From contig JAEEKZ010000007.1 in the NCBI GenBank assembly GCA_016288635.1, positions 12,649 to 76,648 on the forward strand: a stretch of 64,000 nucleotides of DNA, in the 5' to 3' direction. A program made the translations under genes and the position numbers. The notes beneath the pieces were generated by a model, which was not told the DNA's origin, made no database searches, and saw only the letters and a list, made by a program, of their open reading frames with translations. Source of the DNA: Bacillales bacterium. Its GTDB lineage: Bacteria > Bacillota_I > Bacilli_A > RF39 > UBA660. Positions 21,027 through 38,990 of the stretch are shown here, one piece after another (position 1 is the stretch's first letter; each line of letters begins with the position of its first letter).

Positions 21027-21033
21027 GTATTAT

Positions 21034-21625: not shown

Positions 21626-23476
21626 CTAGTTATTGTTTTCTGTTAATTGATACCAATTGCTTTCTAATTCATTTAATTTACTAGTTAAATCCTCTAATTC
21701 TTTATTTAGATTATTTATTTTTTCATATTCATTATAGTTATCTTGGCTATATAGTTCTTCATTTATTTCCTTTATTCTATTAGATACTTTTTCCATTTCT
21801 TTTTCTATTTTTTTAATTGAATTATTATCTTGTTTAATAGATTCTTTTTTTATAGGTTTGTTTGCTTTAATAGTATCTATTTCTTTAGTATTTTTCTTTT
21901 TCTCTATATATTCAGAATAACCATGTCGAAAATGCTCTATATTATTATTTTCAATAACAAGTAGTTCATCTGCTAGTTGGCTAACAAAGTATCTATCATG
22001 ACTTACAAATACTATAGTTTCTGGATAATCTTTTAATATTTTTTCTAGTTTTTCTTTATTTAAAATATCTAAGTGATTAGTTGGTTCATCTAAGAATATT
22101 AAATTAGGTTTAGCAAAGAATATTTCACATAATAATAATCTTACTTTTTCTCCGCCTGATAATACTTTTAATTCTTTATCACTATCCATGCCTGTGAATA
22201 GAAAGGCTCCAAGTGCACTTTTAGCTTCTTCAATAGTTAGATCAGGATATTTATATCTAAATTCTTCTAGAATAGTTCCATCAGTTTCAAATTCAAGATT
22301 CTGATCAAAATAAGCATAGTTAACATTATATCCATAACTGACTGTTCCTTTAAGTGGCTTAATTATCTTACTTAGAGTTTTTAGTAGTGTAGACTTACCT
22401 ATTCCATTTGGGCCAATTATACCTAGTTTTTTACCTCTATCAAGATTAAAACTAATATTACCTAAAGATTTATCATAACCAAATTCTAAGTCTTTAACAC
22501 TTAGTACATCTTTACCTGACTTAGATATGTTCTTATTATCGGTTTTAAAGGTTCTAGAATCGCTTTTTCTGGGTTTGTCGATAATTTGCATTCTCTCAAT
22601 CATTTTGAGTCTAGAAAGTGCCATTTTGGCCTTCTTTGGCTTAGATCTAAATCTTTCATATAGAGCTGTTAATCTTTTAATCTCTTCTTGTTGGAATTTA
22701 TAGTCTTTTAATAGTTTATTATATCTTTCTTCTTTTAATTCTACATACTTTGTATAATTACCTACATACCTAATTGTTTCACCATATTCAATATCATATA
22801 TGACATTAACTATATTATCTAAAAACATTCTATCGTGAGATACCACTATGAATGAGCCTTTATATTTATTTAAATATTCTTCTAGCCATTCAATAGTATT
22901 AATATCTAAGTGATTTGTAGGTTCATCAAGAATTAATAAATCTGGATTAGATAATAATAATTTCATAAAAGATATTTTCATTTTTTCTCCACCAGAGAAA
23001 TTTTTAATTAGTTTAGATTTATCAAGAGTGGAGAATCCAAACTTATTTATCATTACTTCGATGGTTTTCTTATAGCTATATCCCCCACTATTTTCGAAAC
23101 GCTCCATTAATTTTGAATATTCTTTAATGTTATTGTCATTTGTTAAATCTAAAGATAATTTTTCAATCTTTTTTTCTAGAGTTAATAATTCACTAAAGGC
23201 TTCAATTAGTTCCTCATACAATGTCTTATTATCATCAATTTTAACTTGTTCTAAATAGCCTATTTTAAAATTACCAATCTTTTGTATTTCAAATGGCAAA
23301 TCCCCAATACCTTCTCTAAAAGTATTATTAATAATGGCATTTAAAAGAGTTGTTTTACCAGCCCCATTTTTACCAACGATTGCTATATGATCGTTATCAT
23401 TTATTTCAAAATTAACATTTTCTAATATATCATTGCCATCTATTTCAACAGCACCATTTTGTATCCTTAATTTCAT
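21626..23476 (-). CDS. ABC-F family ATPase (two NBDs, no TM domain)
   Basis: Two Walker A motifs (GKNGAGKTT, GPNGIGKST), two LSGGE signatures and a C-terminal coiled coil. Confidence 0.9.
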   Translation of the reverse strand: MKLRIQNGAVEIDGNDILENVNFEINDNDHIAIVGKNGAGKTTLLNAIINNTFREGIGDLPFEIQKIGNFKIGYLEQVKIDDNKTLYEELIEAFSELLTLEKKIEKLSLDLTNDNNIKEYSKLMERFENSGGYSYKKTIEVMINKFGFSTLDKSKLIKNFSGGEKMKISFMKLLLSNPDLLILDEPTNHLDINTIEWLEEYLNKYKGSFIVVSHDRMFLDNIVNVIYDIEYGETIRYVGNYTKYVELKEERYNKLLKDYKFQQEEIKRLTALYERFRSKPKKAKMALSRLKMIERMQIIDKPRKSDSRTFKTDNKNISKSGKDVLSVKDLEFGYDKSLGNISFNLDRGKKLGIIGPNGIGKSTLLKTLSKIIKPLKGTVSYGYNVNYAYFDQNLEFETDGTILEEFRYKYPDLTIEEAKSALGAFLFTGMDSDKELKVLSGGEKVRLLLCEIFFAKPNLIFLDEPTNHLDILNKEKLEKILKDYPETIVFVSHDRYFVSQLADELLVIENNNIEHFRHGYSEYIEKKKNTKEIDTIKANKPIKKESIKQDNNSIKKIEKEMEKVSNRIKEINEELYSQDNYNEYEKINNLNKELEDLTSKLNELESNWYQLTENNN

Positions 23477-23535
23477 ATTAATTTCCTCATTACGTTATTA
23501 TTTTATATAATTACTAAAGTAAAGTCTATATTTAA

Positions 23536-23566
23536 TAAAAAAATAGTTTAAATTAATAAACTATTT
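23536..23566 (-). terminator. Intrinsic terminator of map
   Basis: On the minus strand, AAATAGTTTA-ttaatt-TAAACTATTT followed by T8. Confidence 0.75.
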
Positions 23567-24320
23567 AATCATCTAATCTTGGAGTTAGTATTTCATATCC
23601 AGTATCTGTAACTAGTACTGTGTGTTCATAATGCGCAGCATCTAGACCATCCGCTGTGATAACTGTCCAACCATCACTTAATAGATATACTTTTTCTCCC
23701 CCGAAGGTTAACATGGGTTCAATACATATAACCATTCCTGGCTTTAATCTAGGCCCAGAATTTTTACTACCAAAGTTAGGTACATCTGGTTCTTCATGCA
23801 TTTCTGTACCTATTCCATGTCCACATAATTCTCTTACTATTCCTAAATTATGTTTTTTAGCGTATTTTTCTATGGCATTAGAGATATCACCCACTCTATT
23901 ACCTGGCTTAACCATCTTTAATCCTTCATATAGTGCTTTTTCTGTATGTTCCATTAGATATTTCTTATCTTCATCTATTTCTCCTACAGCATATGTCCAG
24001 GCTGCATCTCCTTGATATCCTTTATAACCTATTACAACATCTATGGTAATAATATCGCCATTTTTTAATTTAGTTTTGCCAGGTATTCCGTGAACAACTT
24101 GATTATTAACACTTGTACATAAAGCGCATGGAAATCCTTCGTATCCTTTACATGTAGGAACCCCGCCATTTTCTATGATGAAATCTTCACATAGTTTATC
24201 TAACTCTTTTGTTGTTATTCCTTCTTTAATAAATGGTTTTATATATTTATGCATTAATGATACAAGCATACCAGCTTTTCTCATTAATTCTATTTCTTCT
24301 TCACTTTTTATGGTAATCAT
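23565..24320 (-). CDS. map: Type I methionine aminopeptidase
   Basis: Metal-ligand blocks (DIVIGYKGYQGD, HGIGTEMHEEP, EPML, EHT). Confidence 0.95.
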   Translation of the reverse strand: MITIKSEEEIELMRKAGMLVSLMHKYIKPFIKEGITTKELDKLCEDFIIENGGVPTCKGYEGFPCALCTSVNNQVVHGIPGKTKLKNGDIITIDVVIGYKGYQGDAAWTYAVGEIDEDKKYLMEHTEKALYEGLKMVKPGNRVGDISNAIEKYAKKHNLGIVRELCGHGIGTEMHEEPDVPNFGSKNSGPRLKPGMVICIEPMLTFGGEKVYLLSDGWTVITADGLDAAHYEHTVLVTDTGYEILTPRLDD

Positions 24321-24462
24321 TTTTGCCTCCTTTTTAATTTTATCACAAATAAAAAAAATCTTAAATTTAATATTAAGATTTAGCGTAAAATATTTGATGT
24401 TATACCACTTGAATAAGAAGTAAAAATATGGTAAATTAGTTTCATTGAAAGTGGTGATTGTA

Positions 24463-24579
24463 ATGTCAAAATCAAAGAAGAAAAAAATAGCTGGTAAAGT
24501 GTTTGTATGGTTATGTCTATTATTATTTATAGTAAGTTCTATTGGTACAATAATTGCTTATTATGTTAATACTAGATAG
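24463..24579 (+). CDS. Possible 38-aa single-TM peptide
   Basis: ATG follows GGTGA. The product MSKSKKKKIAGKVFVWLCLLLFIVSSIGTIIAYYVNTR has a basic N-terminus and one TM. It is below the track size cutoff and has no further support. Confidence 0.3.
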   Translation: MSKSKKKKIAGKVFVWLCLLLFIVSSIGTIIAYYVNTR

Positions 24580-25357
24580 AAAACAATAGTATTAAAATAT
24601 TATTAAATTTTTCAAAATAAACGAAGACTATAAATAAGGCCCCTACTAAGAATGGACCGAATGGTACTTCGTTATTTTTTGTGATTAAAAGTGAAGCTAC
24701 AGAAACTGGAAGAGCTAGGAAAGCAGATAATATTATGGCAATAAATGACATTTTAATGCCAAGTATCATACCTAATACAAAGGAAAACTTTATATCTCCT
24801 CCACCAAGGGCTTCTTTTTTAAATATCTTAGAACATACAGTCCCAAAGATGTACATTATTGCAAATATTAATAAACCTGTTCCAACTGATTTTAAAGCCC
24901 CAATAAAGCCTAAACTATACCATTTAATTATAAATACTAATATTGATGATATTACTAATGGTGAATCAAGAATCATTAAGTATTTAAAGTCAGTTATAAA
25001 GATAATTACTACTAAACTAGCTATTATTAATCCTATGAAAGTATTTGTAGTAAAACCTAATGTAGTTGCAGGATTATAGAATGAATAATATATAAAGGCA
25101 AATATTATACCAGTAAACATTTCTATTAAGAAATTAATTGATGGTATTTTGCATTTACATATTGGGCATTTTCTTAAGAATAAATAAGAAAAAAGTGGTA
25201 TCAACTGATACCACTTTAATATTGCTTTACAATTGTCGCAGTGAGATCTTGATACTAATACGTCTTCATTCTTTGGTAATCTTGTTGCAATAACGAGATA
25301 AAATGATCCCATTATTGCTCCAAAATAGAACAATATAATCATCATAGATATCAACAT
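24572..25357 (-). CDS. pilD: Prepilin peptidase (A24 family, PilD/ComC)
   Basis: CDNC...CPIC zinc motif, ITDFKYLMILD and GGGDIKF aspartate blocks. The start was moved to the ATG 6 nt after AGGAGG (MLISMM). Confidence 0.85.
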   Translation of the reverse strand: MLISMMIILFYFGAIMGSFYLVIATRLPKNEDVLVSRSHCDNCKAILKWYQLIPLFSYLFLRKCPICKCKIPSINFLIEMFTGIIFAFIYYSFYNPATTLGFTTNTFIGLIIASLVVIIFITDFKYLMILDSPLVISSILVFIIKWYSLGFIGALKSVGTGLLIFAIMYIFGTVCSKIFKKEALGGGDIKFSFVLGMILGIKMSFIAIILSAFLALPVSVASLLITKNNEVPFGPFLVGALFIVFVYFEKFNNILILLFSI

Positions 25358-25370
25358 CTCAAACCTCCTA

Positions 25371-26903
25371 TTACATATTAACGTTGTTGTACATTTCAAA
25401 CATTGGAACTAGGATTGCTAATACAATTATACCAACTATTATAGTTAAGAATACGATAATAACTGGTTCTAGGAATGTTTTTAAGTTTCCAACAATTGCT
25501 TTGTGTTCTTTTGAATAGTAATCCGAAACCTTAGCCATCATTGTAGCTAATTGACCAGTAGACTCACCTGTTACAATCATATAATATGCTATATCAGGAA
25601 CAGCCCAGTGATTTCTAAACGCTTCAGATATCTTATCACCTTTAATGATATTATTAATTGTTTTAAATAATATTGCTTTATATACTTCGTTTGTAGTAAT
25701 CTTACTCAAAATATCTACACTCTCTGTAATATATACGTTATTCTTTAACAAAGATGCAAATGTTTTTGAGAAAATTGTTAATTCGTTATAGATTAATACG
25801 TTTTTAAATAATGGTAAATGCATTAATCCCATTTGTACCATTACCTTAAATCCTTTGATGTATTTATATAATGAAACAAATATACCAACTATTACACCAA
25901 TTATCGCTATTATATAGAACCAATTGGCTTTCAGGAAGTCACTGGCGTCAAATACTACTTTAGTAAGACCTCCAATTTCCATTCCGTTTCCATCATAAAT
26001 ACCTCTAAATTGAGGAACTACATATACACAGATGAATACTGATACACCTATTGCAAATACAGATATTAATGCTGGATATGTAATAGCACTAATCATAGCT
26101 TTCTTAGTATCATTTAATTCTGTGTAGTAATTTGACATATCTTCTAGTGTTTCTTCCAAAGTACCACTGGCTTCTGCAGCCTTAACCATATTAATTAACA
26201 ATGGTGGGAACATATCCCCTTGTTTCTTCATGGCTTCTGAGAAAGTTTCACCAATTGATAACTCATAACTTAAACTCTTAAATGCGTTTTCTACAGCTTT
26301 ATTTGTTCTCATTTGAGTTGTTAAGATTCTAACTCCTTCGTTTAATGTAATACCTGCTCTTAAATAAGTAGTTAACTGTGTTAACCAGAAGATTAATTCT
26401 TTTGTCTTTAATCTTGGAGCAAATACTTTACCATATACGAATTCGATTTGTTTAGATGTCTCAATTGAGAATACTTTATATCCTTCACTAACTAGGAATG
26501 TATTAATATCAACTTTTGATGTTCCTTTAATGGATCCTGTTATTAATTTACCTTGTGGATTTAAAGCCCTAAACTGGAATGTATGCGGTTCTGCAGTTCT
26601 TAGCGCTCCAGCACCTTTTAAGTCTTGAACTAATGCCGCTTGTTGTTGTTCCAACTCTTTCATCTTAGTAGCATTAATTTTTTGAGGCTTAACCTCTTTT
26701 TGTTTTCCTCTAATAGCTTCATACATGAATTCGCTATCATCAATGTGACTATTATAATAACTTATTCCATCTTTAATTTTGGCTTTTGTTACTAAGAATA
26801 GTGCAATCCACATTTCAAAAAAGACGAACTTTGCCCCAGTAACTAAGTATTTACCAAGTGCTAACGGGAAAAAATCCATTATAGTTTTCTTTGCTGTATC
26901 CAC
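25371..26903 (-). CDS. pilC: Type IV pilus/T2SS platform protein (GspF/PilC family) with ~105-aa N-terminal extension
   Basis: Two GspF repeats. The canonical N-terminal block F.F.A....G....G begins near residue 108 (HTFQFRALNPQGKLITGSIKG). A GTG start follows AAAGGTGA. Confidence 0.8.
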   Translation of the reverse strand: MDTAKKTIMDFFPLALGKYLVTGAKFVFFEMWIALFLVTKAKIKDGISYYNSHIDDSEFMYEAIRGKQKEVKPQKINATKMKELEQQQAALVQDLKGAGALRTAEPHTFQFRALNPQGKLITGSIKGTSKVDINTFLVSEGYKVFSIETSKQIEFVYGKVFAPRLKTKELIFWLTQLTTYLRAGITLNEGVRILTTQMRTNKAVENAFKSLSYELSIGETFSEAMKKQGDMFPPLLINMVKAAEASGTLEETLEDMSNYYTELNDTKKAMISAITYPALISVFAIGVSVFICVYVVPQFRGIYDGNGMEIGGLTKVVFDASDFLKANWFYIIAIIGVIVGIFVSLYKYIKGFKVMVQMGLMHLPLFKNVLIYNELTIFSKTFASLLKNNVYITESVDILSKITTNEVYKAILFKTINNIIKGDKISEAFRNHWAVPDIAYYMIVTGESTGQLATMMAKVSDYYSKEHKAIVGNLKTFLEPVIIVFLTIIVGIIVLAILVPMFEMYNNVNM

Positions 26904-26939
26904 AAAATCACCTTTTCTACTTTTAATATCTTCTTATAC

Positions 26940-26968
26940 ATTATAATATATATTAAACGTAAATTCAA
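26940..26968 (-). promoter_or_regulatory. sigmaA-type promoter TTGAAT-17-TATAAT for pilC-pilD
   Basis: On the minus strand, -35 at 26968-26963 and -10 at 26945-26940. Confidence 0.6.
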
Positions 26969-27014
26969 TTTATTAATTAAAATTTTTACATTAAAATTAC
27001 TACTTTTTAATAAT

Positions 27015-27046
27015 AAAAAAAGTTAGTACTATATTTAATACTAACT
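27015..27046 (-). terminator. Intrinsic terminator after trmK
   Basis: AGTTAGTA-10 nt-TACTAACT followed by T7 on the minus strand. Confidence 0.7.
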
Positions 27047-27672
27047 TAACATTTCTTTAGTAAATCATTTATTTGATTTAGTTGTCTTTTTATTTCGTTA
27101 TTTTTATCTTCTGGAACATTTTTTATTATTTTTTCAAACTTTGTTTTTAAATGGTTTAAGTAAGATTTATCGTAAGAAATTCCAAAGTGCAATTCTGAAT
27201 CATTTAATATTTGATTTCCTTTTACAAATTTGATAATTGAATAATAAATTTTACCTTCATAAACGATTATTTCTTTTTCAATTTTGTAACCATTATCATT
27301 AAAAAATTTTCTTAATTCATATAAATCATTGTTTGATTGAATAATATATGTATCTAAGAATAAATTTTTATTTAAGATTTTTTTTATGGTTTCTGTTCCC
27401 ATTCCTGAGATCGTTATTACATTATAATCTTTGGGAATATCTTTTATTCCATCTGTCAAAAAGGTTTTTATTTTACCTGATAAGCTATATTTATTGATGT
27501 TTGATATTGCTTGAAGAATTGCCCCTTCTGCAATGTCTGATGCATATACATATTTAGCAATTTTGTTTTTTATTAAGTATATTGGTAAATATGCATGATC
27601 AGTACCTATATCTAAAACAAAAGCATCATTAGGAACTAATGATGCAATAGCTTCAATTCTTTTTAAAGCCAT
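27046..27672 (-). CDS. trmK: tRNA (adenine22-N1)-methyltransferase TrmK (YqfN)
   Basis: VLDIGTDHAYLPIYL motif. Position after rpoD as in Bacillus. Confidence 0.8.
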   Translation of the reverse strand: MALKRIEAIASLVPNDAFVLDIGTDHAYLPIYLIKNKIAKYVYASDIAEGAILQAISNINKYSLSGKIKTFLTDGIKDIPKDYNVITISGMGTETIKKILNKNLFLDTYIIQSNNDLYELRKFFNDNGYKIEKEIIVYEGKIYYSIIKFVKGNQILNDSELHFGISYDKSYLNHLKTKFEKIIKNVPEDKNNEIKRQLNQINDLLKKC

Positions 27673-29009
27673 TATCCCTCCATGAAGTCTTTTAATTTTT
27701 TTGCTCTAGAAGGATGTCTCAATTTTCTCAAGGCTTTTGCTTCAATTTGTCTAATTCTTTCTCTTGTTACATTAAATTTCTTTCCAACTTCTTCAAGAGT
27801 ATGACAAGTACCATCTTTTAAACCAAATCTTAATTCTAGAACTTCTTGTTCTCTTGGTTGTAATGATGCTAATACTTCTTTTATTTCTTCTTTTAATATT
27901 TCATTTTCAGTATACTCTTCTGGAGATAAACTTGATTCATCTTTTAAGAATTCACCTAAATGTGAATCATCTTCTTCACCAATTGGAGTTTCTAGAGATA
28001 CTGGATCTTGACTTATTTTCATTACATCTCTAACTTTATCTACACCAATACCCATTTTCTTAGCTATTTCTTCTTCAGTTGGTTCTCTATTTAATTCAAG
28101 AGTTAATTGTCTTTGAATTCTAGCCATTTTATTAATTGTTTCTACCATGTGAACTGGTACACGAATTGTTCTAGCTTGGTCTGCTAGTGCACGAGTAATT
28201 GCTTGTCTAATCCACCATGTTGCATATGTAGAAAATTTATATCCTTTGTAATAATCAAATTTATCTACGGCTTTCATTAAACCAATGTTACCTTCTTGAA
28301 TTAAATCAAGGAATAATAATCCACGTCCAACGTATCTTTTAGCAATTGATACTACAAGACGTAGGTTTGATTCAGCAAGTAATCTTTTTGCTTCTTCATC
28401 GCCTTGTGCAGAACGAATACTTAAATTCATTTCTTCTTCCATTGTTAGAAGAGGAATTTTACCTATCTCTTTTAAGTACATTCTTACTGGATCGTTAATA
28501 TTTACGTCTTTAGTTATATCTTCATCACTTAGCAATGTAGGTTCTTCTAAATCACTAAGGTTTGGTTCTTCAGATAAATTCTTATCACTTTCATTTATTG
28601 CTGGAATATTATTTTCCATTAAGAAATTATATAAATTACCTAATACGTCATTTAGTAAATCATTATCTATATTGTATTTTTTTAATGTATCCGCTAAGTA
28701 TTCAAATGTAATATATCCGTCTTTTTTACCAGTTTCTAATAACTCGTTTTTAATATCATCTAATTGACTGTTATCATTTATTTCACTTGCTTCTACATCA
28801 TTAATTTCTAAATCTAAATCTTCAATTGTCTCTTCAGTTGGAGTTTCTTCTATTTTTTTCTTAGTAGTTTTCTTTTTTGTTTCTTTTTTCTCTACTTCTT
28901 TTATTTCTTCTTTATTTTTCTTTTTTGTTTTTTTCTTTGGTTTTTCTACAACTAGTTCTTCGATAGTTGATTCTTCTATATTTGTTTCTTTTTTAGTCGC
29001 CTTTTTCAT
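27672..29009 (-). CDS. rpoD: Primary RNA polymerase sigma factor
   Basis: Regions 1.2, 2, 3 and 4 ([13 protein letters not shown]; [20 protein letters not shown]). Lys/Glu-rich N-terminus. The start was placed at the 4th codon of the track ORF. Confidence 0.95.
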
Positions 29010-30759
29010 TATCCACACATCCTTTTTTTAATTTAGCCAATTTTTCAATTAATTTTACTTTGGCATCAATATCCATTTCGGATTTTACTTGTTTCTTGGT
29101 CTTTTCTAGTTCGATTTTGTTCATTTCTTTTTTCATAAGAGAAATGTACTCAATAAATGAATCATAATTAAGTTCTTCATCATTATTTTCATTTAAACAT
29201 TCATTTACCATCTCGGATAACTCTTGATTACCATTTATGTGAGTAATAAAATCTGCCAAAAAAACATCTTGATTATTCTTGTAAAAATAATTTATCTCAT
29301 TAAAGAGCTCCCTTTCCTTCTTTTCTTCAAAGTACCCAATTTCTTGTCTAAAAACATTAATATATTTTACACCATTTAGCAAATAAAACAAGATTTTTTT
29401 GCATAAAATGTCATATTTACTACGTTTTTTTGAAATATTCGTTCGCCTTTTTTGATCTAAAGAATCTATTCTTTTTTCAGATACTAAATTATTTCTTAAT
29501 TCATTTTTAATTATTTCGACACTTACAGTGGTGTTATTTTCTAATTTAGATAGGATAACATCTTGTGTAACAGCATCTACTGATTTAAGAAGTTTAGCTA
29601 CTTCTTTAATAAAATCGGCAACATCAATTGAACTATTGAAGTTAGTGTTGCTAATTAAATAGTTTATTTTAAAGTCTACAAAAGTGGTGGCATTATTTAT
29701 ATTACTTATTAATGCTTCTACCCCATTGCCTCTTATATACTCATCTGGATCTTTATATCCAGTTAATCTTACAACTTTTGTTTCTATGCCATAATTATGT
29801 AATAATTCACCATTTTTTAGTGTGGCATTTAATCCTGCTGCATCATTATCTAGCATAACTATTACGGGTATATTTAATTTTTTAAAGACATCTAAATGGA
29901 ATTTGGTTAGACTTGTACCTTGTAATGCTACAACGTTTTTAATGCCACTAGCAAACATCTTTATTGCGTCCATATTTCCTTCTACGACAATAATTTGTTT
30001 TTCTTGTTTTGCATAGTTTTTTGCTTTATCAAAGTTAAAGATTATTTCGCTTTTTTTGAATATTACTGTTTCTTTTGAATTAACATATTTTGCTTGATCT
30101 TCATTGTGATATATTCTTCCTGTAAAACCTACTACTTGACCATTAATGTTTTTTATAGGAATCATTATTCTATTTAAGAATGTGTCGTAAACATCCACCC
30201 CATTTTTATTAACTAAACCTATATTATCAATGGTTTGCAAGTCTACTCCTTGTTTAGTTAAAAAATCATATAAAGATGTTCTATTTTGAGTAGATAAACC
30301 TATTTCAAATTCTTTAATTATTTCATCATCTATGCCACGATCTAATAAATATTTCTTTGCTTCTACCCCATTCTTGGTATTAAGATTGTTTAAGTAGAAT
30401 TTGCAGGCTAAATCCATTGTTTCAAATTCTTTTTTATATGTTTCTGATTTAGCATTTTTATTATTATATTTAAAATCTATTCCTACTTTATCTGCGACAG
30501 TTTTAACTGCCTCAAGAAATCCAACCCCTTGATAATCCATGATAAAACTAAAGACATTTCCACCTTTATTACATGCAAAACAATTAAATATTTGTTTATC
30601 TTTTGATACTGTAAAGCTTGGGGTTCTTTCTTGACCACTTTTATGAAAAGGACAAGGTGCTACATAATTATTTCCTTTTTTTGTTAGAGGAATGTAATCG
30701 GAAATAATATCTACAATATTAGCGGCTTGTCTAATTGCTTCTATTTCTTCGTTGCGCAT
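28993..30759 (-). CDS. dnaG: DNA primase
   Basis: Zinc finger [16 protein letters not shown]...CFAC and TOPRIM (VVEGNMD, DNDAAG). The start was placed at MRNEEIEAI. Confidence 0.95.
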
Positions 30760-30830
30760 ACTTCTTATTCCTTTCAAGTCATTTGATTACATTATACAAA
30801 ATTATTGCTAAAAATTAAATAGATAATGCA

Positions 30831-30857
30831 AATAAAAAAGTATGAAATTCATACTTT
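30831..30857 (-). terminator. Intrinsic terminator ending the rnfC-like to lipoprotein operon
   Basis: On the minus strand, AAGTATGAA/TTCATACTT hairpin followed by T6. Confidence 0.7.
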
Positions 30858-31589
30858 TTATCTATTCTTATTAGCTGCTTTTGCGCTTACTATCATTCCG
30901 ATTGCAATTACTAGTACGAAGCCCACCGCAATAGAACTTCCAATCAGTGTATTTTTAATTTGTTCGTCTCTTGGTATTTCTGGTTTTGGTGGTAATTCAG
31001 GCTTTTCCTCTATTTCTGGTTTTGGATCTTCCTCAACAGGAACTGGTTCTTCAATTGGGTCTTCTGTTGGTTCCTCCCCTTCACCATAGCTTATTTTACA
31101 ATTTACATTTGGAATATTGTCTTCCGTAAAAACCCAAACAAGATAATCACCAGATGTACTAAAATTATTACATTCTTTAATTTCTCCATCTGCTTTGATT
31201 TTTAATGTGAATTTATCGGCTTGTTCTAATTCTTCTTTGCAATCAAAATTTTCCATTTCGATTATATAATTCTGACTTTTTTTATCAGCTTCTATTTTAA
31301 TGTTTTTAAAACAATGTGCTGTAATACTATCTTTCGAAAATTCATCAATATTAAATGAGGCACTATATCTATATCCGTTTGATAATTTGTCTATTTTATA
31401 CTCCTCTTTTACCCCCACTAAATTTGCTAAAGCAATATATTCTTTTGTGAAGTCTTTGTCTTTTGTTTCTCCATCAAAGGTTAGTACTTCATTGACAGTT
31501 GCTTCATCTATTTCTAAAACTGATTCTGTTGTGCATCCGCATAACAATATTATTCCCATTAATATGATTACTAATTTTATATTTTTCAT
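30858..31589 (-). CDS. Lipoprotein with acidic/Pro-rich linker and C-terminal TM anchor (paralog A)
   Basis: Lipobox LLCGC after a signal peptide, EEPTEDPIEEPVPVEEDPKPEIEEKPELPPKPEIP linker, and a terminal TM plus KAANKNR. Confidence 0.7.
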   Translation of the reverse strand: MKNIKLVIILMGIILLCGCTTESVLEIDEATVNEVLTFDGETKDKDFTKEYIALANLVGVKEEYKIDKLSNGYRYSASFNIDEFSKDSITAHCFKNIKIEADKKSQNYIIEMENFDCKEELEQADKFTLKIKADGEIKECNNFSTSGDYLVWVFTEDNIPNVNCKISYGEGEEPTEDPIEEPVPVEEDPKPEIEEKPELPPKPEIPRDEQIKNTLIGSSIAVGFVLVIAIGMIVSAKAANKNR

Positions 31590-31610
31590 TTTTAATGTTC
31601 CTTTTGTTTA

Positions 31611-32351
31611 TTATTTATTTTTATTTGCTTTAAATATACTTATGAAGAAAGCAACAAGAACAATTAATACGAATCCTCCGACAATACCTGCAAGAAGTAG
31701 TAATTGTTGTTTTGATTTTTCTTCCATTTCTTTTTGTTTCTTTTCTTCTTCTATATTTACCCAATCGCCATCTTCTCTTTGATAGTATCCAGCATCTTCT
31801 GGGCCAGTTGCCTCTTCAGTGCTTTGTGGCTGTTCTTTATGACTAATTGTAAAATAAATGTATTGATCTTTATAATTGTCTTTTGTGAATGTCCAAATAA
31901 GTTCGCCATTATCTTCTACCGCTTTATTACTATTGATTATTATGCCATCTGTTTTGATTATAAAATCCAATTTATCGATTTGTTCTAATTCTTCTTCACA
32001 TCTAAAATTTCCAATCATAAAAGTATAGGCTTCGTTGTCTTCATCTTTTAATATTTTGGCATATCTAAAGCAGTTGTCTATAATACTATTTTCAGTTATT
32101 TTTGTATCATTTTGATATTCTTCAAATGAAAAAGATTTGGTAAATTTGTTTTCTTCTTCATTTATCTCATAGCCATAGTCTGATTCGAGTATATATTTAT
32201 ATAATTTAACATCATCTTTATTTGGTGTTTCGCCTTCAAATGATAGTGTTTCATTTATTGACGAATTATTTATTTCTAAAACCATTTTTGAATTACATCC
32301 GCATAATAGAAATATGCTGAATAATAGAATAATTATTTTGACTTTTTTCAT
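31611..32351 (-). CDS. Lipoprotein with C-terminal TM anchor (paralog B)
   Basis: The start was moved to MKKVKIIILLFSIFLLCGC (AAAGGA RBS). It aligns with paralog A (VLEI....NE.L.F.GET, F.CEEELEQ.DK). C-terminal TM plus KANKNK. Confidence 0.7.
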   Translation of the reverse strand: MKKVKIIILLFSIFLLCGCNSKMVLEINNSSINETLSFEGETPNKDDVKLYKYILESDYGYEINEEENKFTKSFSFEEYQNDTKITENSIIDNCFRYAKILKDEDNEAYTFMIGNFRCEEELEQIDKLDFIIKTDGIIINSNKAVEDNGELIWTFTKDNYKDQYIYFTISHKEQPQSTEEATGPEDAGYYQREDGDWVNIEEEKKQKEMEEKSKQQLLLLAGIVGGFVLIVLVAFFISIFKANKNK

Positions 32352-32379
32352 ATTTATTCCTTTCTTTTTTATTATGCTT

Positions 32380-34857
32380 TTATTTTGTAACCGCAATAGC
32401 TTTATTTGAAGGCTTTAGAACTGCATCTGCTGGTAATCCATCGTTTGATGATGAACCGTTTTTTCCAACAGAAGCGCCTGCAATTATTAATTTATCATCT
32501 GCTGTAATTCCTATAATTGTCACAAAATGTCCGTTGTTACTAAACACACAAAATCCTTTTCTTTGAAGTGAAGGATTCCCATTGCATGTTAACCCGTAAT
32601 ATTCACTATATGGATTTCCATTTTGCCTATCGCCACCAGCTATTACAACGTTACCGGCAGCAAGAGTCTTTCGTATTGCTGCTATTTTATCAGATGTAGA
32701 TGTTTTGTAATTTTGCCATAACCATCCCCCACTTTGCTTTAATCCTGCATGTTCTAAAATTTTTGTGACTGATGTCCATCCTGTTTGTTCATATGTTATT
32801 CTTGTATTAGACCATGAAGCAAGATTTTGCGGAGTATTTCCACTTGTTTTTCCAAGTTTTTTTGCTGAGTTTGCTACGGCAACTAGTGAGCAGCCTGATC
32901 CACAAATTGTTTCATCTTTTCCAGCTTTATATATTCTCCATTTTATATTTTTTATAGTATCTTGGCATGAAGACCAGTATCCGCTTGAACTCTGTGATCC
33001 TAATTTTCCGCTTGTAGATGTTGGTCCTGGTGATGGTGGATCTTCTCCAGGTGGGTCTTCTCCACCAGGTGGGTTGCATACTTCATTTCCTGGCTTTGTG
33101 CTGTTTAAATAATTTGAACACATATAATACCCATTATATTTTCCGCCAGTTATTTTTACCCATCCATCTGTACAGGCTGAACTAGATGAATCATGTAATG
33201 GAGTTTTACAAACTTCTATTTCAGTTCCACAATCTAATTCGGCAATTCTTTTGCCACTTGTAGCTGGTTGTTCACGAACTCTTACTTCTTTATTATTAGT
33301 ATATTTTTTTACGCTTTCAGTACATTCTTCTTCAGTATATTCTCCGAAAAAGTCTGCACATACATAACATCCTGGCCAATAAGCATCCTTATTATCCTCT
33401 ACTTTATACCATCCTTTTTGACATTCTCCAGATGTATCTGGTTCTAGTTTATTTTCTACTTTTATTATTTCTTTAAGATGCACTTTTCTTCCGCATATTT
33501 CTGTTTGGCTTACTTTCATTTCTTTTCTTACGTTTACTTTATCTTCAATGGCTTGAATTCTAACTATGTTATGTTCTGGGTCTTCTTCTCCTTGAGTACT
33601 ACATTCCATTAGATCTCTAGCGTCTTCTTTTCCGACTGCTACGGCGACATACATATATTTAACAACATCGTGTGCATCCATGCGCCATCCATTTGTTCCG
33701 CTTCTACTTACCATAGCATTTGCAACAGTAAAAGTGTTATCTTCATATGCTGCTACTATTGTAACATAGTGCCCAAAATTGGTAAAAGTACAAGTTCCTG
33801 TATTTTCTTCACAGCCATCATCTCCTCTTTTACCGCTTGCAATTACTGCATAACCACTTGCTAAAGCTTGTTTGACATATTGGATTTTTTCATCATCATC
33901 TTTAGCTGTTGGTGCTGATGTAAAATGTTTAGGGTCATTATTATCAAATAAAGGTACTTTTTTTAAATTATAATGATCAATCATTTCTTCTGTTTTATTC
34001 CAGTCTGCATTACCTTCGAATCTAGCTATATTGTAGGTCCAATCTGCTGTTCCTTTAACTGTTGCTTCAACTTCAAGCATATGACAGGCATTAACAACTG
34101 CTAATAATGAGCATCCTGAAACTTGAACGATTTCGTCTGCAGGATTTTCTGAATGTTTCCATAAAGTGTTTGCCCATGTATCATCGTGGTCGCTCTTTTT
34201 TTGAATTTCTAAATCAGTGAATGCATCAACATCTGTCCAACCGCATCCATTAGAACATTCACAATCATTAAATAATTCGTCCAAGTTTATTCCTTCGGTA
34301 TCTGCTTCACAATGTTCAAAAAATTTAACATCATCCTCACAAATATAACCATGTACTTCACCATGTTCATATATTGATCGCATTATGAATTCTCCAAGGA
34401 ATTTTTTATTCCAATATTTTTTTGCGTCTTCTTCGTCCACAGGGTAACTTACTCTGATATATGTTGGGCATAAATGATGTTCTTCTCTTATGTCGACAAA
34501 GGCTTCTTCCTCTTCTACTTGCTTTGGATCGTTTACATCATAATTGAAGCAAAAACCTTCTGGAACTCTTGCACAGCTATATTCATATATAGTGTTGAAA
34601 AGTGGGCTGCTTTGCCAAAAGCCAATATATTCATTATAAAATGGGCAAAATAATGTTTCTTTTTCTGTAATTACAGTACTCATATCCGGCTTTGTTTGAG
34701 GGGGGTCCGCCTTTTGTGATGGACTTAATCCAAAAATTAAAATCAATAATAAAGTTATTATTACTGTTATAATTATAACCCATAATAATATTTTTGCATC
34801 TGCTGCATTTAGTTTTGATGAATCTTTATTTTTTGATTCACTACTATTGCTACTCAT
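32380..34857 (-). CDS. Membrane-anchored Cys-rich protein with two Cys/His peptidase-like (C39-like/papain-fold) domains and two SH3b-like repeats
   Basis: N-terminal TM. The pairs SGCSLLAVVNA...FGHYVTIVAA and GSGCSLVAVANS...NGHFVTIIGI are each candidate Cys/His dyads. GWYKVED... and GWVKITGGKYNGYY are SH3b-like. Linker GGEDPPGEDPPSPGP. Confidence 0.6.
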   Translation of the reverse strand: MSSNSSESKNKDSSKLNAADAKILLWVIIITVIITLLLILIFGLSPSQKADPPQTKPDMSTVITEKETLFCPFYNEYIGFWQSSPLFNTIYEYSCARVPEGFCFNYDVNDPKQVEEEEAFVDIREEHHLCPTYIRVSYPVDEEDAKKYWNKKFLGEFIMRSIYEHGEVHGYICEDDVKFFEHCEADTEGINLDELFNDCECSNGCGWTDVDAFTDLEIQKKSDHDDTWANTLWKHSENPADEIVQVSGCSLLAVVNACHMLEVEATVKGTADWTYNIARFEGNADWNKTEEMIDHYNLKKVPLFDNNDPKHFTSAPTAKDDDEKIQYVKQALASGYAVIASGKRGDDGCEENTGTCTFTNFGHYVTIVAAYEDNTFTVANAMVSRSGTNGWRMDAHDVVKYMYVAVAVGKEDARDLMECSTQGEEDPEHNIVRIQAIEDKVNVRKEMKVSQTEICGRKVHLKEIIKVENKLEPDTSGECQKGWYKVEDNKDAYWPGCYVCADFFGEYTEEECTESVKKYTNNKEVRVREQPATSGKRIAELDCGTEIEVCKTPLHDSSSSACTDGWVKITGGKYNGYYMCSNYLNSTKPGNEVCNPPGGEDPPGEDPPSPGPTSTSGKLGSQSSSGYWSSCQDTIKNIKWRIYKAGKDETICGSGCSLVAVANSAKKLGKTSGNTPQNLASWSNTRITYEQTGWTSVTKILEHAGLKQSGGWLWQNYKTSTSDKIAAIRKTLAAGNVVIAGGDRQNGNPYSEYYGLTCNGNPSLQRKGFCVFSNNGHFVTIIGITADDKLIIAGASVGKNGSSSNDGLPADAVLKPSNKAIAVTK

Positions 34858-34916
34858 ATTTTCACATCCTACTTTTAAAGTATATCATTTTTTGATTTGT
34901 ATTGCATTAAAAAAAA

Positions 34917-35807
34917 TTATTCTTTTGGAATAATTTTTGATTTATTTTTCTTTCTTGTAAATATTCTATCTATAGCCCTACTTATAATGGAACAACTTAG
35001 TATTGAAATAAATGCTCCTTCATATGGGAATATACTATTTAGGAATATTGCTAAAAATACTAAGAAGATACAATAGAATATTTTGCCTATTCTTGTATAT
35101 GAAGAATGTTTAAAACTTGCTCCAAATATTATGAAGGCGGCAATTGTACCCGCAAAATTAATAAATATTGTTGAATCTTTTTCTATAAAATAAATTGTAA
35201 AAATGCATATTGAATATAATGATGTAGAAATAATTGCTATGCTTTTTTTATAATTTCCTGATAAACATAGTATTATAAATGTTATAAAAGCACATAATAA
35301 GCTTGTTGCAGACATTCCCCCGATACTTCTTCCCATTGCTAAGTCAACGAAGGAAAAGTCATATAAATGATTTGCTTCTTGAAGATTCCAATATGAATAA
35401 CTACCTATATAATATAGGGCTAATACAAGTATTAGTTTAATTAAACTACCTTTATTAAATTCTAATGGTATTAAATCTATAATTGGAATTAGAACTAATA
35501 ATGCAACAGAGTATTTCAATAAACTTGTTTCTGGAGGCATAAATATACCAATCGCGGTATAGTAAAATGCATCAATATTAAGTTTTAATTTTCTTTCTTT
35601 AATAAGTGAATATAGCATATATATAGCAAATGGTATTATGCAAAATAGTATTGGTCTAAATATTCCATAAAAAGGAACATATTTATTTAGATATAACAAT
35701 ACTCCATTTTTATATGTGCCATATAATACTAAAGGTATTAAACTTAATAAATATATTAGAGTAATTCGATTAATATTTTTTCTTGTATGATTAAATACTT
35801 TATTCAT
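34917..35807 (-). CDS. RnfD/NqrB-like polytopic membrane protein, cofactor motif not seen
   Basis: The N-terminal block NHTRKNINRITLIYLLSLIPL, the block GRSIGGMSATSLLCAF and the C-terminal block align with RnfD. No SGAT-type FMN-attachment motif was found. The start follows AAGGTGA. Confidence 0.6.
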   Translation of the reverse strand: MNKVFNHTRKNINRITLIYLLSLIPLVLYGTYKNGVLLYLNKYVPFYGIFRPILFCIIPFAIYMLYSLIKERKLKLNIDAFYYTAIGIFMPPETSLLKYSVALLVLIPIIDLIPLEFNKGSLIKLILVLALYYIGSYSYWNLQEANHLYDFSFVDLAMGRSIGGMSATSLLCAFITFIILCLSGNYKKSIAIISTSLYSICIFTIYFIEKDSTIFINFAGTIAAFIIFGASFKHSSYTRIGKIFYCIFLVFLAIFLNSIFPYEGAFISILSCSIISRAIDRIFTRKKNKSKIIPKE

Positions 35808-36948
35808 TTTTATCACCTTTTAAGTATTTTCTTAGGTTTATAAAACTTGGACATACATAACTGCATAAACCACAATCAATACATCTTTTGCTTGTTATTT
35901 TATGATCCATTAGTCTTTTAGGATCTATTCTCATTGGGCAAACTTCTAAGCATGCACCACAGTAAAGACATTTTTGTTCTTTAACCTCTTCTTTTTTCAT
36001 AATAAATAAAGCTTCAGTATTACCGTCGATTATTTCGTTAAATGAGGTTATTTTTGATCCGGTCATTAAACCGTTTTTAATAAATTGACTACCTGTTTCA
36101 TATTTAATTCCATTCATTAAATCTAATGCTAGTGAATATAATTTTATATCTTTTACTATTGGTGTACTAGTGTTATTACCTACAATAGTAACATATTTAG
36201 TATTAGGTTTTCTTTTATATTTCATTGCATAATAAATCTTGTATAAATCACTAGGTTTTACAACTAGAGTTCTATTCTTATCTAGTCCCATATGGGCACA
36301 TAGGAAATCTTTTCGTTCTAATAAATATAAGTCATCTAATAATTTAATTTGGATATTTGGATACATACCATTAAAGTCTATTAATGATGTTATGTTAGAT
36401 GAATCAACATTCTTAACAGTTATAAGAATTTTTGATGCTTTATAAACTTTACCTACTAAATCAAGTGTATCTAATATTTCAGCACTATTATTTATAAAGT
36501 AGAATGTTTCATTCATTATAAATGGCTCATCTACAAATAGATTTAAAATTAAAGTGTCAACTTTTCCTACAACAAATCTTTTAGATAATTGTTCATCATC
36601 AATATTGTTTAATAGTCTATTTAAATCATCTAGTTTTTTTATTTCACGAACATCAAATCTAACCTTTTTTTCTTTAAAGTTATTTTCTATTCTAATTGCT
36701 TTAATCTTCTTGTTATTATGATATAAACCTTCACATATAGATACAACTTTACCAGATATACTTGAATACAAATAAACATCGCCATTTGTAGCGACTTTTT
36801 GGCTCATAGAAACACTATCGCCAATATCCACTAAAGGTTTAAAATTTTTATGCAAAGGAATATATATATAATCTACATCATATAATTCTTTTTTTTCAGT
36901 TGGTACAACGATATCTTTTGGTTTGTCTATACGTATTAGTTTTTTCAT
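35800..36948 (-). CDS. RnfC-like protein (barrel N-domain, SLBB-like, 2x[4Fe-4S]) lacking a recognisable NADH/FMN loop
   Basis: IPLHKNFKPLVDIGDSVSMSQKVA...SISGKVVSI matches the RnfC_N pattern. LILNLFVDEPF replaces IINGAECEPY. CLYCGACLEVCP and CIDCGLCSYVCP are present. No GGAGFPT-type loop was seen. Confidence 0.6.
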   Translation of the reverse strand: MKKLIRIDKPKDIVVPTEKKELYDVDYIYIPLHKNFKPLVDIGDSVSMSQKVATNGDVYLYSSISGKVVSICEGLYHNNKKIKAIRIENNFKEKKVRFDVREIKKLDDLNRLLNNIDDEQLSKRFVVGKVDTLILNLFVDEPFIMNETFYFINNSAEILDTLDLVGKVYKASKILITVKNVDSSNITSLIDFNGMYPNIQIKLLDDLYLLERKDFLCAHMGLDKNRTLVVKPSDLYKIYYAMKYKRKPNTKYVTIVGNNTSTPIVKDIKLYSLALDLMNGIKYETGSQFIKNGLMTGSKITSFNEIIDGNTEALFIMKKEEVKEQKCLYCGACLEVCPMRIDPKRLMDHKITSKRCIDCGLCSYVCPSFINLRKYLKGDKNE

Positions 36949-36962
36949 AAATCATCAAATTA

Positions 36963-36991
36963 ATTGTATCAAAATATTACTTTTTTATCAA
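36963..36991 (-). promoter_or_regulatory. sigmaA-type promoter TTGATA-17-TACAAT for the rnfC-like operon
   Basis: On the minus strand, -35 at 36991-36986 and -10 at 36968-36963. Confidence 0.6.
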
Positions 36992-36993
36992 TT

Positions 36994-37017
36994 AAAAACC
37001 GGTTAAATAAACCGGTA
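36994..37017 (-). terminator. Intrinsic terminator of aspS
   Basis: ACCGGTT-tattt-AACCGGT followed by T5 on the minus strand. Confidence 0.75.
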
Positions 37018-37020
37018 TTT

Positions 37021-38772
37021 TTAATCTTCTTTCTTAATTATAAGTCCTAATTCTTTTAGTTGAATATCAGTAAGTTCACTTGGAGAACCCATCATTAAGT
37101 CTTGCCCACTTGCTGATGGTGGGAATGCTTGAACTTCTCTTAAGTTTGGTTCATCTTGAATTAACATAATTAATCTATCAATTCCAGGTGCCATTCCACC
37201 ATGTGGAGGACATCCATATTTAAATGATGTGAAGATTGATTTAAATCTTTGTTCTACTTCTTCCCTTCCATAACCCACTACTTCGAAGCCTTTTGCTAAA
37301 CTATCTAAGTCATGGTTTCTTATTGCACCACTAGCCATTTCGTTACCATTACATACAAAGTCAAATTGATAAGCTAGGATATCTTCTGTTTTCTTATTCT
37401 TATAATCATCAATTCCACCATGAGGTAAACTAAATGGATTATGACAGAAATCCCATTTATTTAGATATTCATCCCATTCAAACATTGGGAAGTCATTGAT
37501 TATGCATAGTTCTAGTCTATCTTTATCAATCATGTTCATATCTTCAGCAACTTTGATTCTTACTTGTCCTAATGCTGATTTTACAATTTTTTTGTTTCCA
37601 GAAATAATTAGAACTAAGTCATTATTTTCAATTTTTAATGTTTTCTTTAAGGCGATAAGTTCATCTTCTGTAACTACTTTAGCAATACTTCCAGTTATCT
37701 CTTCATTAAATTTTAAGTATGCTAAACCAGATGCTTTTTTAGATTTAGCAAAATCAGTTAAGTTATCTAAATCTTTACGAGAATATTTATCAGCACAATT
37801 CTTTGCAACAATTGCATTAATGATTCCATTTTGCTCTAGAACAGTTTTAAATACAACAAATTCACTGTTTTTGAATACATCAGTTACATCTGAAATAGTC
37901 ATATCATATCTTAAGTCTGGTTTATCTGTTCCATATAGATCAATTGCATCTCTATAAGCAATTCTTCTAAATGGTCTTGGAGATACCTTCTTATTTGAAA
38001 ATTTTGTAAATGTATCATAGAAGATTTCTTCACCAACATTAAGTATTTCATCTTCTTCAGCAAAAGACATTTCTAAGTCTAATTGATAGAATTCTAATGT
38101 ACGGTCCGCTCTAGCATCTTCATCTCTAAAGCATGGTGCTATTTGGAAATATTTTTCGAATCCACCTACCATAAGCAATTCTTTATAGATTTGAGGAGCT
38201 TGTGGTAAAGCATAGAACTTTCCTTTAAATAATCTTGATGGAACAACAAAGTCTCTTGCACCCTCTGGACTTGATGCTGTCAAAATTGGAGTTTGTACTT
38301 CAATGAATCCTAAATCATGCATTTTATTTCTTAAATAATTTAGAATTTCACTTCTTAAGAATAAGTTGTTTTTTAGTTTATTTCTTCTGATATCTAAATA
38401 TCTATATTTTAAACGAGTATCTTCTAAGGCATTAGTATTATCATCTATTGTAAATGGTAATTCATCACAAGTATTTAATACTTCTAATTCATCTACCTCT
38501 ATTTCGATATCTCCAGTAGCAATATTTTTATTTTTGCTTTCTCTTTCAGATACTTTACCAGTTACTTTTAAGACATATTCATTCTTTAAACCATTTGCTA
38601 CTTCATAGTATTTATTTTCAGGTCTAACAACAATTTGTACTATTCCGGATCTATCTCTTAGGTCAATAAATATTAAGCCACCTAAGTCTCTTTTCTTTTG
38701 TACCCATCCATACACTTCTACATTTTCACCGACATTTTTAATGTTTAATGAATTGTTCATAATTTTTTTCAT
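37021..38772 (-). CDS. aspS: Aspartyl-tRNA synthetase
   Basis: OB-fold N-terminus and class II motifs (FRDEDARADR, GGMAPGIDRL). 583 aa. Confidence 0.95.
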   Translation of the reverse strand: MKKIMNNSLNIKNVGENVEVYGWVQKKRDLGGLIFIDLRDRSGIVQIVVRPENKYYEVANGLKNEYVLKVTGKVSERESKNKNIATGDIEIEVDELEVLNTCDELPFTIDDNTNALEDTRLKYRYLDIRRNKLKNNLFLRSEILNYLRNKMHDLGFIEVQTPILTASSPEGARDFVVPSRLFKGKFYALPQAPQIYKELLMVGGFEKYFQIAPCFRDEDARADRTLEFYQLDLEMSFAEEDEILNVGEEIFYDTFTKFSNKKVSPRPFRRIAYRDAIDLYGTDKPDLRYDMTISDVTDVFKNSEFVVFKTVLEQNGIINAIVAKNCADKYSRKDLDNLTDFAKSKKASGLAYLKFNEEITGSIAKVVTEDELIALKKTLKIENNDLVLIISGNKKIVKSALGQVRIKVAEDMNMIDKDRLELCIINDFPMFEWDEYLNKWDFCHNPFSLPHGGIDDYKNKKTEDILAYQFDFVCNGNEMASGAIRNHDLDSLAKGFEVVGYGREEVEQRFKSIFTSFKYGCPPHGGMAPGIDRLIMLIQDEPNLREVQAFPPSASGQDLMMGSPSELTDIQLKELGLIIKKED

Positions 38773-38990
38773 AAAAATTCTCCTTTCAACAAAAAAGAAC
38801 TTACTAATTTAAGGACGGTTATTCCGCGGTGCCACCTTAATTCATAAATTCTTATGCTCTTTAAACTATAACGCCGTTAAGCGATTTACTATAATTTGCT
38901 ATCTTCATATTTAACTTATTTACTAGTTTTCACCAAACACTAGCTCTCTATAAAATAGTTAGATACTACTCCGTCAAATAAATAAATTAC
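38773..38990 (-). promoter_or_regulatory. T-box riboswitch leader of aspS (Asp specifier GAU tentative)
   Basis: On the minus strand: AGAGAG, then the hairpin CTAGT-gtttGGTGAAA-ACTAG, then GAAGAUAGC (GAU followed by A), then the T-box sequence AATTAAGGTGGCACCGCGG at 38842-38824. Confidence 0.85.

Follow-up and report, generated by a model that had tools for sequence, protein, structure and literature searches.

A two-gene Rnf derivative and an adjoining surface-protein cassette in a Bacillales genome of the RF39 lineage: one system or two neighbours?

The locus described here raises the question of whether five genes arranged like one operon also work as one system. It lies in a stretch of 64,000 nucleotides (nt), referred to as "the window", from a Bacillales bacterium of the GTDB lineage RF39/UBA660 (assembly GCA_016288635.1, contig JAEEKZ010000007.1, positions 12,649 to 76,648 of the forward strand), where five open reading frames (ORFs) follow each other in the same direction on the minus strand, between aspS (37021-38772) and dnaG (28993-30777). 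The first two encode divergent relatives of Rnf subunits: a cytoplasmic iron-sulphur (Fe-S) protein of the RnfC type (35800-36948, 382 amino acids, aa) and a polytopic membrane protein of the RnfD type (34917-35807, 296 aa). The other three encode a type-II membrane-anchored exoprotein of 825 aa (32380-34857), lipoprotein B (31611-32351; 246 aa from the ATG at 32351, with the same length and sequence as public cluster P0068) and its paralogue, lipoprotein A (30858-31589, 243 aa). A first, sequence-only reading had taken the five genes as one functional system. The evidence reported below makes it probable, instead, that two unrelated modules with separate histories lie side by side: a conserved rnfC/rnfD-like pair and a genus-specific surface cassette.

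Distribution of the pair and of the genes behind it

A word search returns 62 clusters related to the RnfC-like protein, and an exhaustive search with the family profile raises the number to 810 (clustering at 50% identity, E <= 1e-30); tblastn matches were found in 389 species-representative genomes. The matching genomes are those of 'Mycoplasma sp. CAG:472' and of uncultured Bacilli, Mollicutes and Tenericutes, the latter being metagenome-assembled genomes (MAGs) from human, mouse, rabbit, goat, sheep and chicken gut. Lineage names are taken as given in the sequence records; these genomes presumably correspond to the RF39-type lineage. Gene neighbourhoods were compared in 83 non-redundant loci, by our own ORF caller, on the best 80 of the 389 genome hits, with about 21 kb visible per genome. 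In 82 of the 83 loci the rnfD-like gene comes directly after the rnfC-like gene, the two frames mostly overlapping or abutting. In some family proteins of 612-705 aa (P0075, P0119, P0144, P0180), RnfC-type domains (Complex1_51K, SLBB, Fer4) and RnfD-type domains (PF03116) are found in the same chain. Some of these natural fusions could be read-through artefacts of overlapping genes; as a group, they support a predicted physical complex between the two proteins.

The three genes behind the pair are distributed differently. The complete order (aspS, rnfC-like, rnfD-like, 825-aa gene, lipoprotein B, lipoprotein A, dnaG, rpoD, trmK) recurs only in three close relatives, L089, L090 and L091, whose RnfC-like proteins are 85-96% identical to the one of the window, while the pair stands without the cassette in 82 of the 83 loci. 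No homologue of the 825-aa protein or of the lipoproteins is detected in the 83 loci by BLASTP (E <= 1e-3), nor any lipoprotein homologue by hmmsearch (E <= 10) in the ORFs of the fetched loci. In a collection of 5.8 billion proteins, the 825-aa protein is represented by only 3 clusters (itself and two more, at 64% and 57% BLASTP identity), and a search with the lipoprotein profile returns five clusters, all from the same clade. A gene-neighbourhood comparison had been suggested as a check on the one-system proposal: its outcome is an association essentially non-recurring beyond the genus.

The segment between the rnfD-like gene and dnaG varies in both length and content. The dnaG-rpoD-trmK genes are located downstream of the pair in 49 loci, at variable distance; in about 20 of 48 loci, no more than 27-110 nt separate rnfD-like from dnaG, and the pair directly precedes the dnaG-rpoD operon. 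One group of loci (L005, L009, L011, L015, L024, L033, L040, L043, L052, L059 and L071, at about 12000-15300 in each) carries in this slot a pilin, i.e. a SpaA/thioester-domain surface protein with hydrophobic N- and C-termini, together with a small sortase. A second group (L035, L038, L046 and similar loci) features a TM2/zinc-ribbon protein, RodA/FtsW, a C-terminally anchored protein of unknown type, frr and mnmA; RodA is a neighbour in 28 loci. The upstream neighbour varies too, being uvrC in 43 loci, nfo in 26 and aspS in the window. The list of conserved neighbours in the 83 loci comprises uvrC, nfo, dnaG, rpoD, trmK, RodA and sortase. From this comparison, therefore, the pair emerges as the conserved unit and the slot behind it as variable.

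Evolutionary rates separate the same two groups of genes. The ratio of non-synonymous to synonymous substitution rates (dN/dS) is 0.088 against L089 and 0.045 against L091 for the rnfC-like gene, and 0.095 and 0.045, respectively, for the rnfD-like gene: these values are comparable to those of rpoD (0.082) and trmK (0.128), and the pair is under strong purifying selection. The 825-aa gene shows 0.32 against L089 and 0.38 against L091, while lipoproteins B and A show 0.17 and 0.27 against L089; cassette genes evolve 3-8 times faster than the pair (dN/dS 0.17-0.38 vs 0.045-0.095). The 825-aa gene is, in addition, a mosaic: codons 420-619 are 91-96% identical in nucleotides to the L089 gene (L089:10001-12475), as compared to 58-73% for the flanks. 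The conserved block (33058-33576, minus strand, codons ~428-600) covers the SH3b region, and the pattern suggests recent recombination or gene conversion in a surface protein. GC content at third codon positions (GC3) is 0.18-0.19 for the cassette, within the host range. Recent horizontal transfer, considered on the basis of composition, was rejected, the GC3 of the 825-aa gene (0.18) falling within the 0.13-0.23 of the host; its higher overall GC is due to amino-acid content. This signature is that of resident, diversifying surface proteins, rather than of proteins tied as partners to a conserved redox scaffold.

The signals around and within the locus were found where the sequence-only reading had placed them: the ORF list, together with signal and hairpin checks, returned the five frames, the gaps of 59, 28 and 21 nt after rnfD-like, the 825-aa gene and lipoprotein B, respectively, the 8-nt overlap of the pair, the promoter and the flanking terminators. 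The overlap depends on the rnfD-like start: the frame is open to 35816, and the ATG at 35807 is also the start used in public gene calls. On the upstream side, the boundary is the intrinsic terminator of aspS (36998-37016, minus strand), a 7-bp GC-rich stem followed by a T run, with a folding free energy (dG) of -10.3, conserved in L089 and L091. Directly after it starts a promoter-like TTGATA-17-TACAAT sequence (36963-36991, minus strand; 10/12 matches, with a TG before the -10), of which both hexamers are conserved in L089 and L091. On the downstream side, lipoprotein A is followed by an intrinsic terminator (30831-30857, minus strand), composed of an 11-bp perfect stem and a U run (dG -8.9 kcal/mol, z -5.25); this hairpin is also present in L089. 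In this AT-rich region, promoter-like hexamer pairs are as frequent as in shuffled sequences (41 found vs 41.4 expected), and promoter calls are based, for this reason, on position and on conservation in relatives, not on statistics.

The 59-nt gap, upstream of the 825-aa gene, contains the extended -10 sequence TGATATACT (34879-34887, minus strand). An extra promoter had been suspected at this point, and the suspicion holds: the element is there and is conserved in relatives. The segment AATGATATACTTTAAAAGTAGGATGTGAAAATATG, which runs from the extended -10 over the ribosome-binding site to the start codon, is 100% identical in L089, L091 and L003, and TGATATACT is likely to be the envelope cassette's own promoter. 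Just upstream of it, L089 (9905-9960) features an insertion of about 33 nt, which generates an 11-bp hairpin with a U run (dG -10.8, z -4.09), a predicted terminator for the rnfCD-like genes. In this sister species the two modules are separated, because a terminator and a promoter lie between them. None of the three intergenic gaps of the window (59, 28 and 21 nt) contains a folded structure; since the hairpin is missing, read-through from the rnfC promoter probably occurs here, the cassette promoter being still present, and would reflect position, not shared function. Operon connectivity thus differs between close relatives, according to the presence (L089) or absence (the window) of the hairpin.

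Proteins encoded by the pair and by the cassette

The RnfC-like protein contains an RnfC_N domain and two 4Fe-4S motifs; a match to Complex1_51K is below threshold and starts at profile position 27. Its score against the curated rnfC model TIGR01945 is 97 bits, below the cut-off of 246. The two [4Fe-4S] motifs, CxxCxxCxxxCP, are located at C327-C337 and C356-C366; both are complete in 86 of the 86 family members, with all eight Fe-S cysteines invariant. The glycine-rich GxGGxxFP motif, which in RnfC serves flavin mononucleotide (FMN) and NADH, is found, in contrast, in none of the 86: alignment with canonical RnfC shows that the loops GxGGAGFPT and REVPSGGLP are both deleted, and the protein is shorter than the solved RnfC chains (382 aa vs about 435-496 aa). 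An AlphaFold model, built from 28 family members, has a mean confidence (pLDDT) of 90.7. When it is compared to known structures by Foldseek, the best matches are 9eri_C, 8ahx_C and 7zc6_C (TM-score 0.82-0.86), i.e. the RnfC subunits of A. woodii, A. vinelandii and C. tetanomorphum, followed by NqrA at 0.66. As far as the model can tell, the RnfC fold is kept.

The RnfD-like protein matches PF03116 (NQR2_RnfD_RnfE) with 32 bits, above the cut-off of 27.7, over its C-terminal half only. A phmmer search of the single protein against PDB sequences gives no match; the family profile does match RnfD and NqrB chains, with E values from 4e-17 (the best, for RnfD) to 3e-11, NqrB chains being matched at 1e-11. 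The alignment of the profile to 7zc6_D begins only at residue 171, beyond the flavinylated threonine. The flavinylation motif [ST]GA[ST] is present in none of 84 RnfD-like sequences. Residues conserved specifically in this family are YKNG (32-35), N141, E144, D155, G159, GG163-164 and K187. The domain assignments of the sequence-only reading, and its description of the two genes as a degenerate Rnf pair, are borne out by the Pfam and NCBIfam hidden Markov model scores and by the counts of cofactor motifs.

The 825-aa protein starts with a transmembrane helix (aa 23-44), which acts as N-terminal anchor, followed by a Cys-rich region of about 150 aa (aa ~60-215) matching no family. Then come a first C39-like domain (Cys249, His363), two SH3b-type modules (aa ~430-600), a Pro-rich linker and a second C39-like domain (Cys656, His777). 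Pfam recognizes Peptidase_C39_2 (PF13529) in two stretches, with 37.7 bits for the whole protein against a cut-off of 24, plus SH3_3. The two C39-like domains are homologous (30% identity, E 3e-19): the sequences SGCS, around Cys249 and Cys656, and GH[YF]V, around His363 and His777, align between them and are invariant in three orthologues. By analogy, these Cys and His residues are assigned as putatively catalytic.

Lipoproteins A and B share 34% identity (E 3e-39). In both, an LLCGC lipobox comes after MKK and a hydrophobic stretch, and C17, G18 and C19 are invariant in paralogues and orthologues; the sequence agrees with the signal-peptide pattern L-x-[GAS]-C, and processing by Lgt and Lsp is predicted. 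Lipoprotein B continues with about 150 aa of globular sequence, followed by an acidic linker, a C-terminal transmembrane helix (aa 217-235) and a basic tail; lipoprotein A has the same double-anchored architecture, with a Pro/Glu-rich linker. Pfam and NCBIfam searches on the two proteins return sub-threshold noise only. A role as RnfG-like flavinylated carriers was considered for them and rejected, on account of the lack of any FMN_bind match and of the [ST]GA[ST] motif.

Alternative readings and proposed roles

The proposal of a single envelope system, where an Rnf-like scaffold powers or hosts the processing, or the redox upkeep, of a Cys-rich exoprotein and of the lipoproteins, draws on the layout: one orientation, short gaps, no internal hairpin and terminators at both ends. 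The 29 cysteines of the 825-aa protein, many of them invariant, also fit with it. It is nevertheless improbable. No homologue of the envelope genes occurs in 80 other species loci bearing the pair, or outside the genus in the large protein collection, and the slot may be empty; the L089 hairpin and the conserved extended -10 divide the locus just where the system should be joined, and evolutionary rates on the two sides are 3-8 fold apart. Moreover, the covalent FMN facing outwards, from which electrons would most naturally leave, has been lost from the RnfD-like protein, and no flavinylation motif or thioredoxin-like domain is found in any of the five proteins: for this last reason, nothing positive ties the cassette to electron transfer.

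Some results have to be set on the other side of the balance, as they speak against two separate modules or weaken parts of their interpretation. The five-gene arrangement is retained in the three relatives, and no hairpin separates rnfD-like from the 825-aa gene in the window, where the five genes may share one transcript. Envelope genes occupy the slot after rnfD-like in three different clades, which could hint at a loose connection with the envelope; this may perhaps reflect just a place in front of dnaG that tolerates insertions, and, phylogenetically, these loci are not independent cases. As to the proteins, the papain fold rests on a Pfam match in which each C39-like domain, taken separately, stays slightly below the cut-off (23 vs 24 bits), the AlphaFold model of the 825-aa protein, from a 3-sequence alignment, being unusable (pLDDT 40). 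The search for further Rnf subunits spanned only the loci of about 21 kb and the 64-kb window, and the biochemical role which we infer for the pair is held with low certainty.

The extent of that search, together with the retention of the RnfC fold and of both Fe-S clusters, leaves some room for a complete, canonical Rnf, of which the pair would be two divergent subunits, the G, E, A and B genes being elsewhere in the genome. Such an arrangement is unlikely. In the established path, electrons go from the FMN of RnfG to the covalent FMN and then the riboflavin of RnfD, to the two [4Fe-4S] clusters and the FMN of RnfC, and finally to NAD+ (PMC12174285); the two cofactor sites that join RnfG to NAD+ in this path, the RnfC loop for FMN/NADH and the RnfD site for covalent FMN, are missing throughout the family. 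No Rnf subunit, flavin transferase or FMN-binding protein is present among the conserved neighbours in the 83 loci, and no member of the Rnf-Nqr, FMN_bind or ApbE families among the window ORFs that are 120 aa or longer (those between 21.6 and 46.6 kb being assigned by synteny with L089 gene calls); PF00175, PF02424 and PF04205 are not found in the five proteins or in their neighbours. Finally, Rnf is described as well preserved in Izemoplasmatales and in a wastewater group, RF39 not being named there (Wang et al. 2020, PMC7301438).

The opposite possibility, that the two genes no longer function and are what remains of a decayed rnfCDGEAB operon, had been indicated as one that would undo the sequence-only reading. 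It is suggested by the loss of two cofactor sites and four subunit genes, and by the low scores against curated RnfC and RnfD models; yet selection on the pair is similar to that on rpoD and trmK, none of the eight Fe-S cysteines varies, no locus has a broken frame, the family extends to 810 clusters, the structure model is confident and the C-D fusions are maintained. The selection and conservation data effectively refute decay, which is left with hardly any probability. Equally remote is a relic of a prophage lysis cassette, made of an endolysin-like enzyme and membrane proteins: the combination of a catalytic domain with SH3b is typical of endolysins, and tandem Peptidase_C39_2 domains are reported in gut-phage endolysin architectures, but no tblastn match is found in 50,697 phage records, nor any PHROG family, GC3 is like that of neighbouring genes, no other phage gene lies nearby, and both the stable N-terminal anchor and the length of 825 aa are atypical.

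In the preferred reading, that of two modules, the first would be a conserved two-subunit Rnf derivative, typical of uncultured Bacilli from gut and rumen ('Mycoplasma sp. CAG:472'/RF39 type): the genes for a cytoplasmic RnfC-fold protein with two [4Fe-4S] clusters and for a polytopic RnfD-like protein lie together and are translationally coupled, and in some cases the two proteins form a single chain. To judge from its motifs, the pair cannot be a ferredoxin:NAD+ oxidoreductase, because neither the RnfC loop that binds FMN/NADH nor the attachment site of covalent FMN on RnfD is kept, and only an Fe-S wire and a membrane subunit are left. Literature searches found no published description of a stand-alone RnfC/RnfD pair. 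The earlier statement that no described system combines the parts seen at this locus is also correct. The RnfCD-only module is an undescribed minimal Rnf derivative.

Tentatively, the pair may be regarded as a self-sufficient two-subunit membrane Fe-S complex, a minimal Rnf devoid of flavin sites and of the four other subunits, maintained by strong selection beside the dnaG-rpoD operon in hundreds of genome-reduced Bacilli of gut and rumen, with a job other than ferredoxin:NAD+ oxidoreduction. It might provide a redox-gated cation pathway linked to ferredoxin, or deliver electrons to a membrane or extracytoplasmic acceptor, possibly in connection with envelope biogenesis. Genomes of the RF39 group encode pyruvate:ferredoxin oxidoreductase (PFOR) and [FeFe]-hydrogenase, and mostly have peptidoglycan genes (Wang et al. 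2020, PMC7301438). RnfD and NqrB proteins are related to Amt and urea transporters (PMC12174285). The pair could be a membrane-docked Fe-S module, swapping electrons with the reduced ferredoxin of PFOR and [FeFe]-hydrogenase metabolism; its output might be a cofactor bound non-covalently by the RnfD-like subunit, or the control of a cation pathway kept there.

The second module would be a fast-evolving, recombining cell-surface cassette, occupying the variable slot that separates rnfD-like from the dnaG-rpoD operon. For the 825-aa protein, we infer a membrane-tethered, tandem papain-fold (C39-like) Cys peptidase, directed to peptidoglycan by SH3b and acting as a wall or surface-protein hydrolase; the two double-anchored lipoproteins would be its partners or regulators. 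C39-like peptidases with SH3b (PF13529) resemble it in the two homologous domains with conserved Cys and His and in the SH3_3 module. The 825-aa protein differs from these peptidases, tandem C39-like endolysins included, in being chromosomal, in its N-terminal transmembrane anchor and in the novel Cys-rich region of about 150 aa; it also has no glycosidase or NlpC/P60 partner domain and no phage homologues.

Comparison with known redox systems helps to place the pair. With the Rnf complex (RnfCDGEAB; 7ZC6, 8AHX, 9ERI) it shares the RnfC fold, RnfC_N and two [4Fe-4S] motifs, the membership of the RnfD-like protein in PF03116 and the order of overlapping genes, C before D; it differs in having two of the six subunits at its loci, an RnfC-like protein without the FMN/NADH loop and an RnfD-like protein without the covalent-FMN threonine motif. 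The Na+-translocating NADH:quinone oxidoreductase (Na+-NQR) offers, with NqrA and NqrB, a similar case of a flavin-less cytoplasmic RnfC-type subunit docking on an RnfD-type membrane subunit. NqrA, however, carries no cofactor, while the RnfC-like protein keeps both Fe-S clusters; NqrB binds FMN covalently and has additional N-terminal helices with a quinone site; and no NqrC, D, E or F is present here. PrdC, the electron-transfer protein of proline reductase (TIGR04481), is likewise an RnfC homologue outside a full Rnf, and is weakly matched (E 5.6e-8), but the RnfC-like protein scores 32 bits against a cut-off of 490, and proline reductase genes are not found here. PrdC is soluble and is not known to have an RnfD partner. 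Reduced derivatives built on an NqrB/RnfD-like membrane domain, similar in this to the pair, are also known from the NQR/RNF-like flavinylation clusters, for which one-way electron transfer has been proposed (Meheust et al. 2021, PMC8238504). In those clusters the RnfD-like domain is fused to an NqrF NAD-binding domain and is accompanied by ApbE and an extracytosolic FMN-binding protein, none of which is present here.

RF39-type Bacilli are abundant, uncultured, genome-reduced members of the gut community of humans and animals, whose energy metabolism is known from annotation alone. In this setting, the automatic label "electron transport complex RnfC/RnfD" would wrongly imply an ion-pumping Rnf complex. 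What an RnfC-RnfD core does alone is a concrete, testable question, which bears on the modular build of the Rnf/Nqr machine. The five-gene "system", in turn, is a positional accident in the favoured reading, and a caution for guilt-by-association arguments based on a single genome.

Surroundings of the locus and other features of the window

Upstream of aspS, a T-box leader (38808-38985, minus strand) scores 101 bits, above the gathering score: it is the expected tRNA-sensing control of an aspartyl-tRNA synthetase gene.

The wider neighbourhood is rearranged with respect to relatives. There, the rnfCD-dnaG region is bordered by the uvrC block (YceG, methyltransferase, U32, U32, greA, an unknown gene, uvrC) and by mnmA, all in one orientation; here the block and mnmA lie 6-19 kb into the window (6412-19018), on the opposite strand. 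Genes converge at about 21 kb (~20800-21600), where the GC skew changes sign. The arrangement of 6412-19018 relative to 21626-38772 points to a possible inversion or translocation in this lineage, or to nearness to the replication terminus.

Several genes unusual for a reduced genome are present at 56417-57610, 60711-62411 and 48888-50270 (minus strand): a gene for an F420-0:gamma-glutamyl ligase-like protein, one of the GGGtGRT family (643 bits) adjoining a weak NifU-like match, and one for an EAL-domain protein, whose N-terminal half (about 220 aa) belongs to no assigned family.

Finally, 1.5 kb without a convincing ORF (53885-55382, minus strand) contain three tandem copies of a unit of about 290-300 nt, 77-95% identical to each other and spaced by 486 and 445 nt. 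No Rfam match is found for the repeat, even at E <= 0.1. Each copy is preceded by a TTTACA-17-TATAAT-like promoter and ends with a hairpin and a T run; in copy 2 the stem is preserved by two compensatory changes. To judge from these features, the repeat may be a triplicated novel non-coding RNA of small or medium size.

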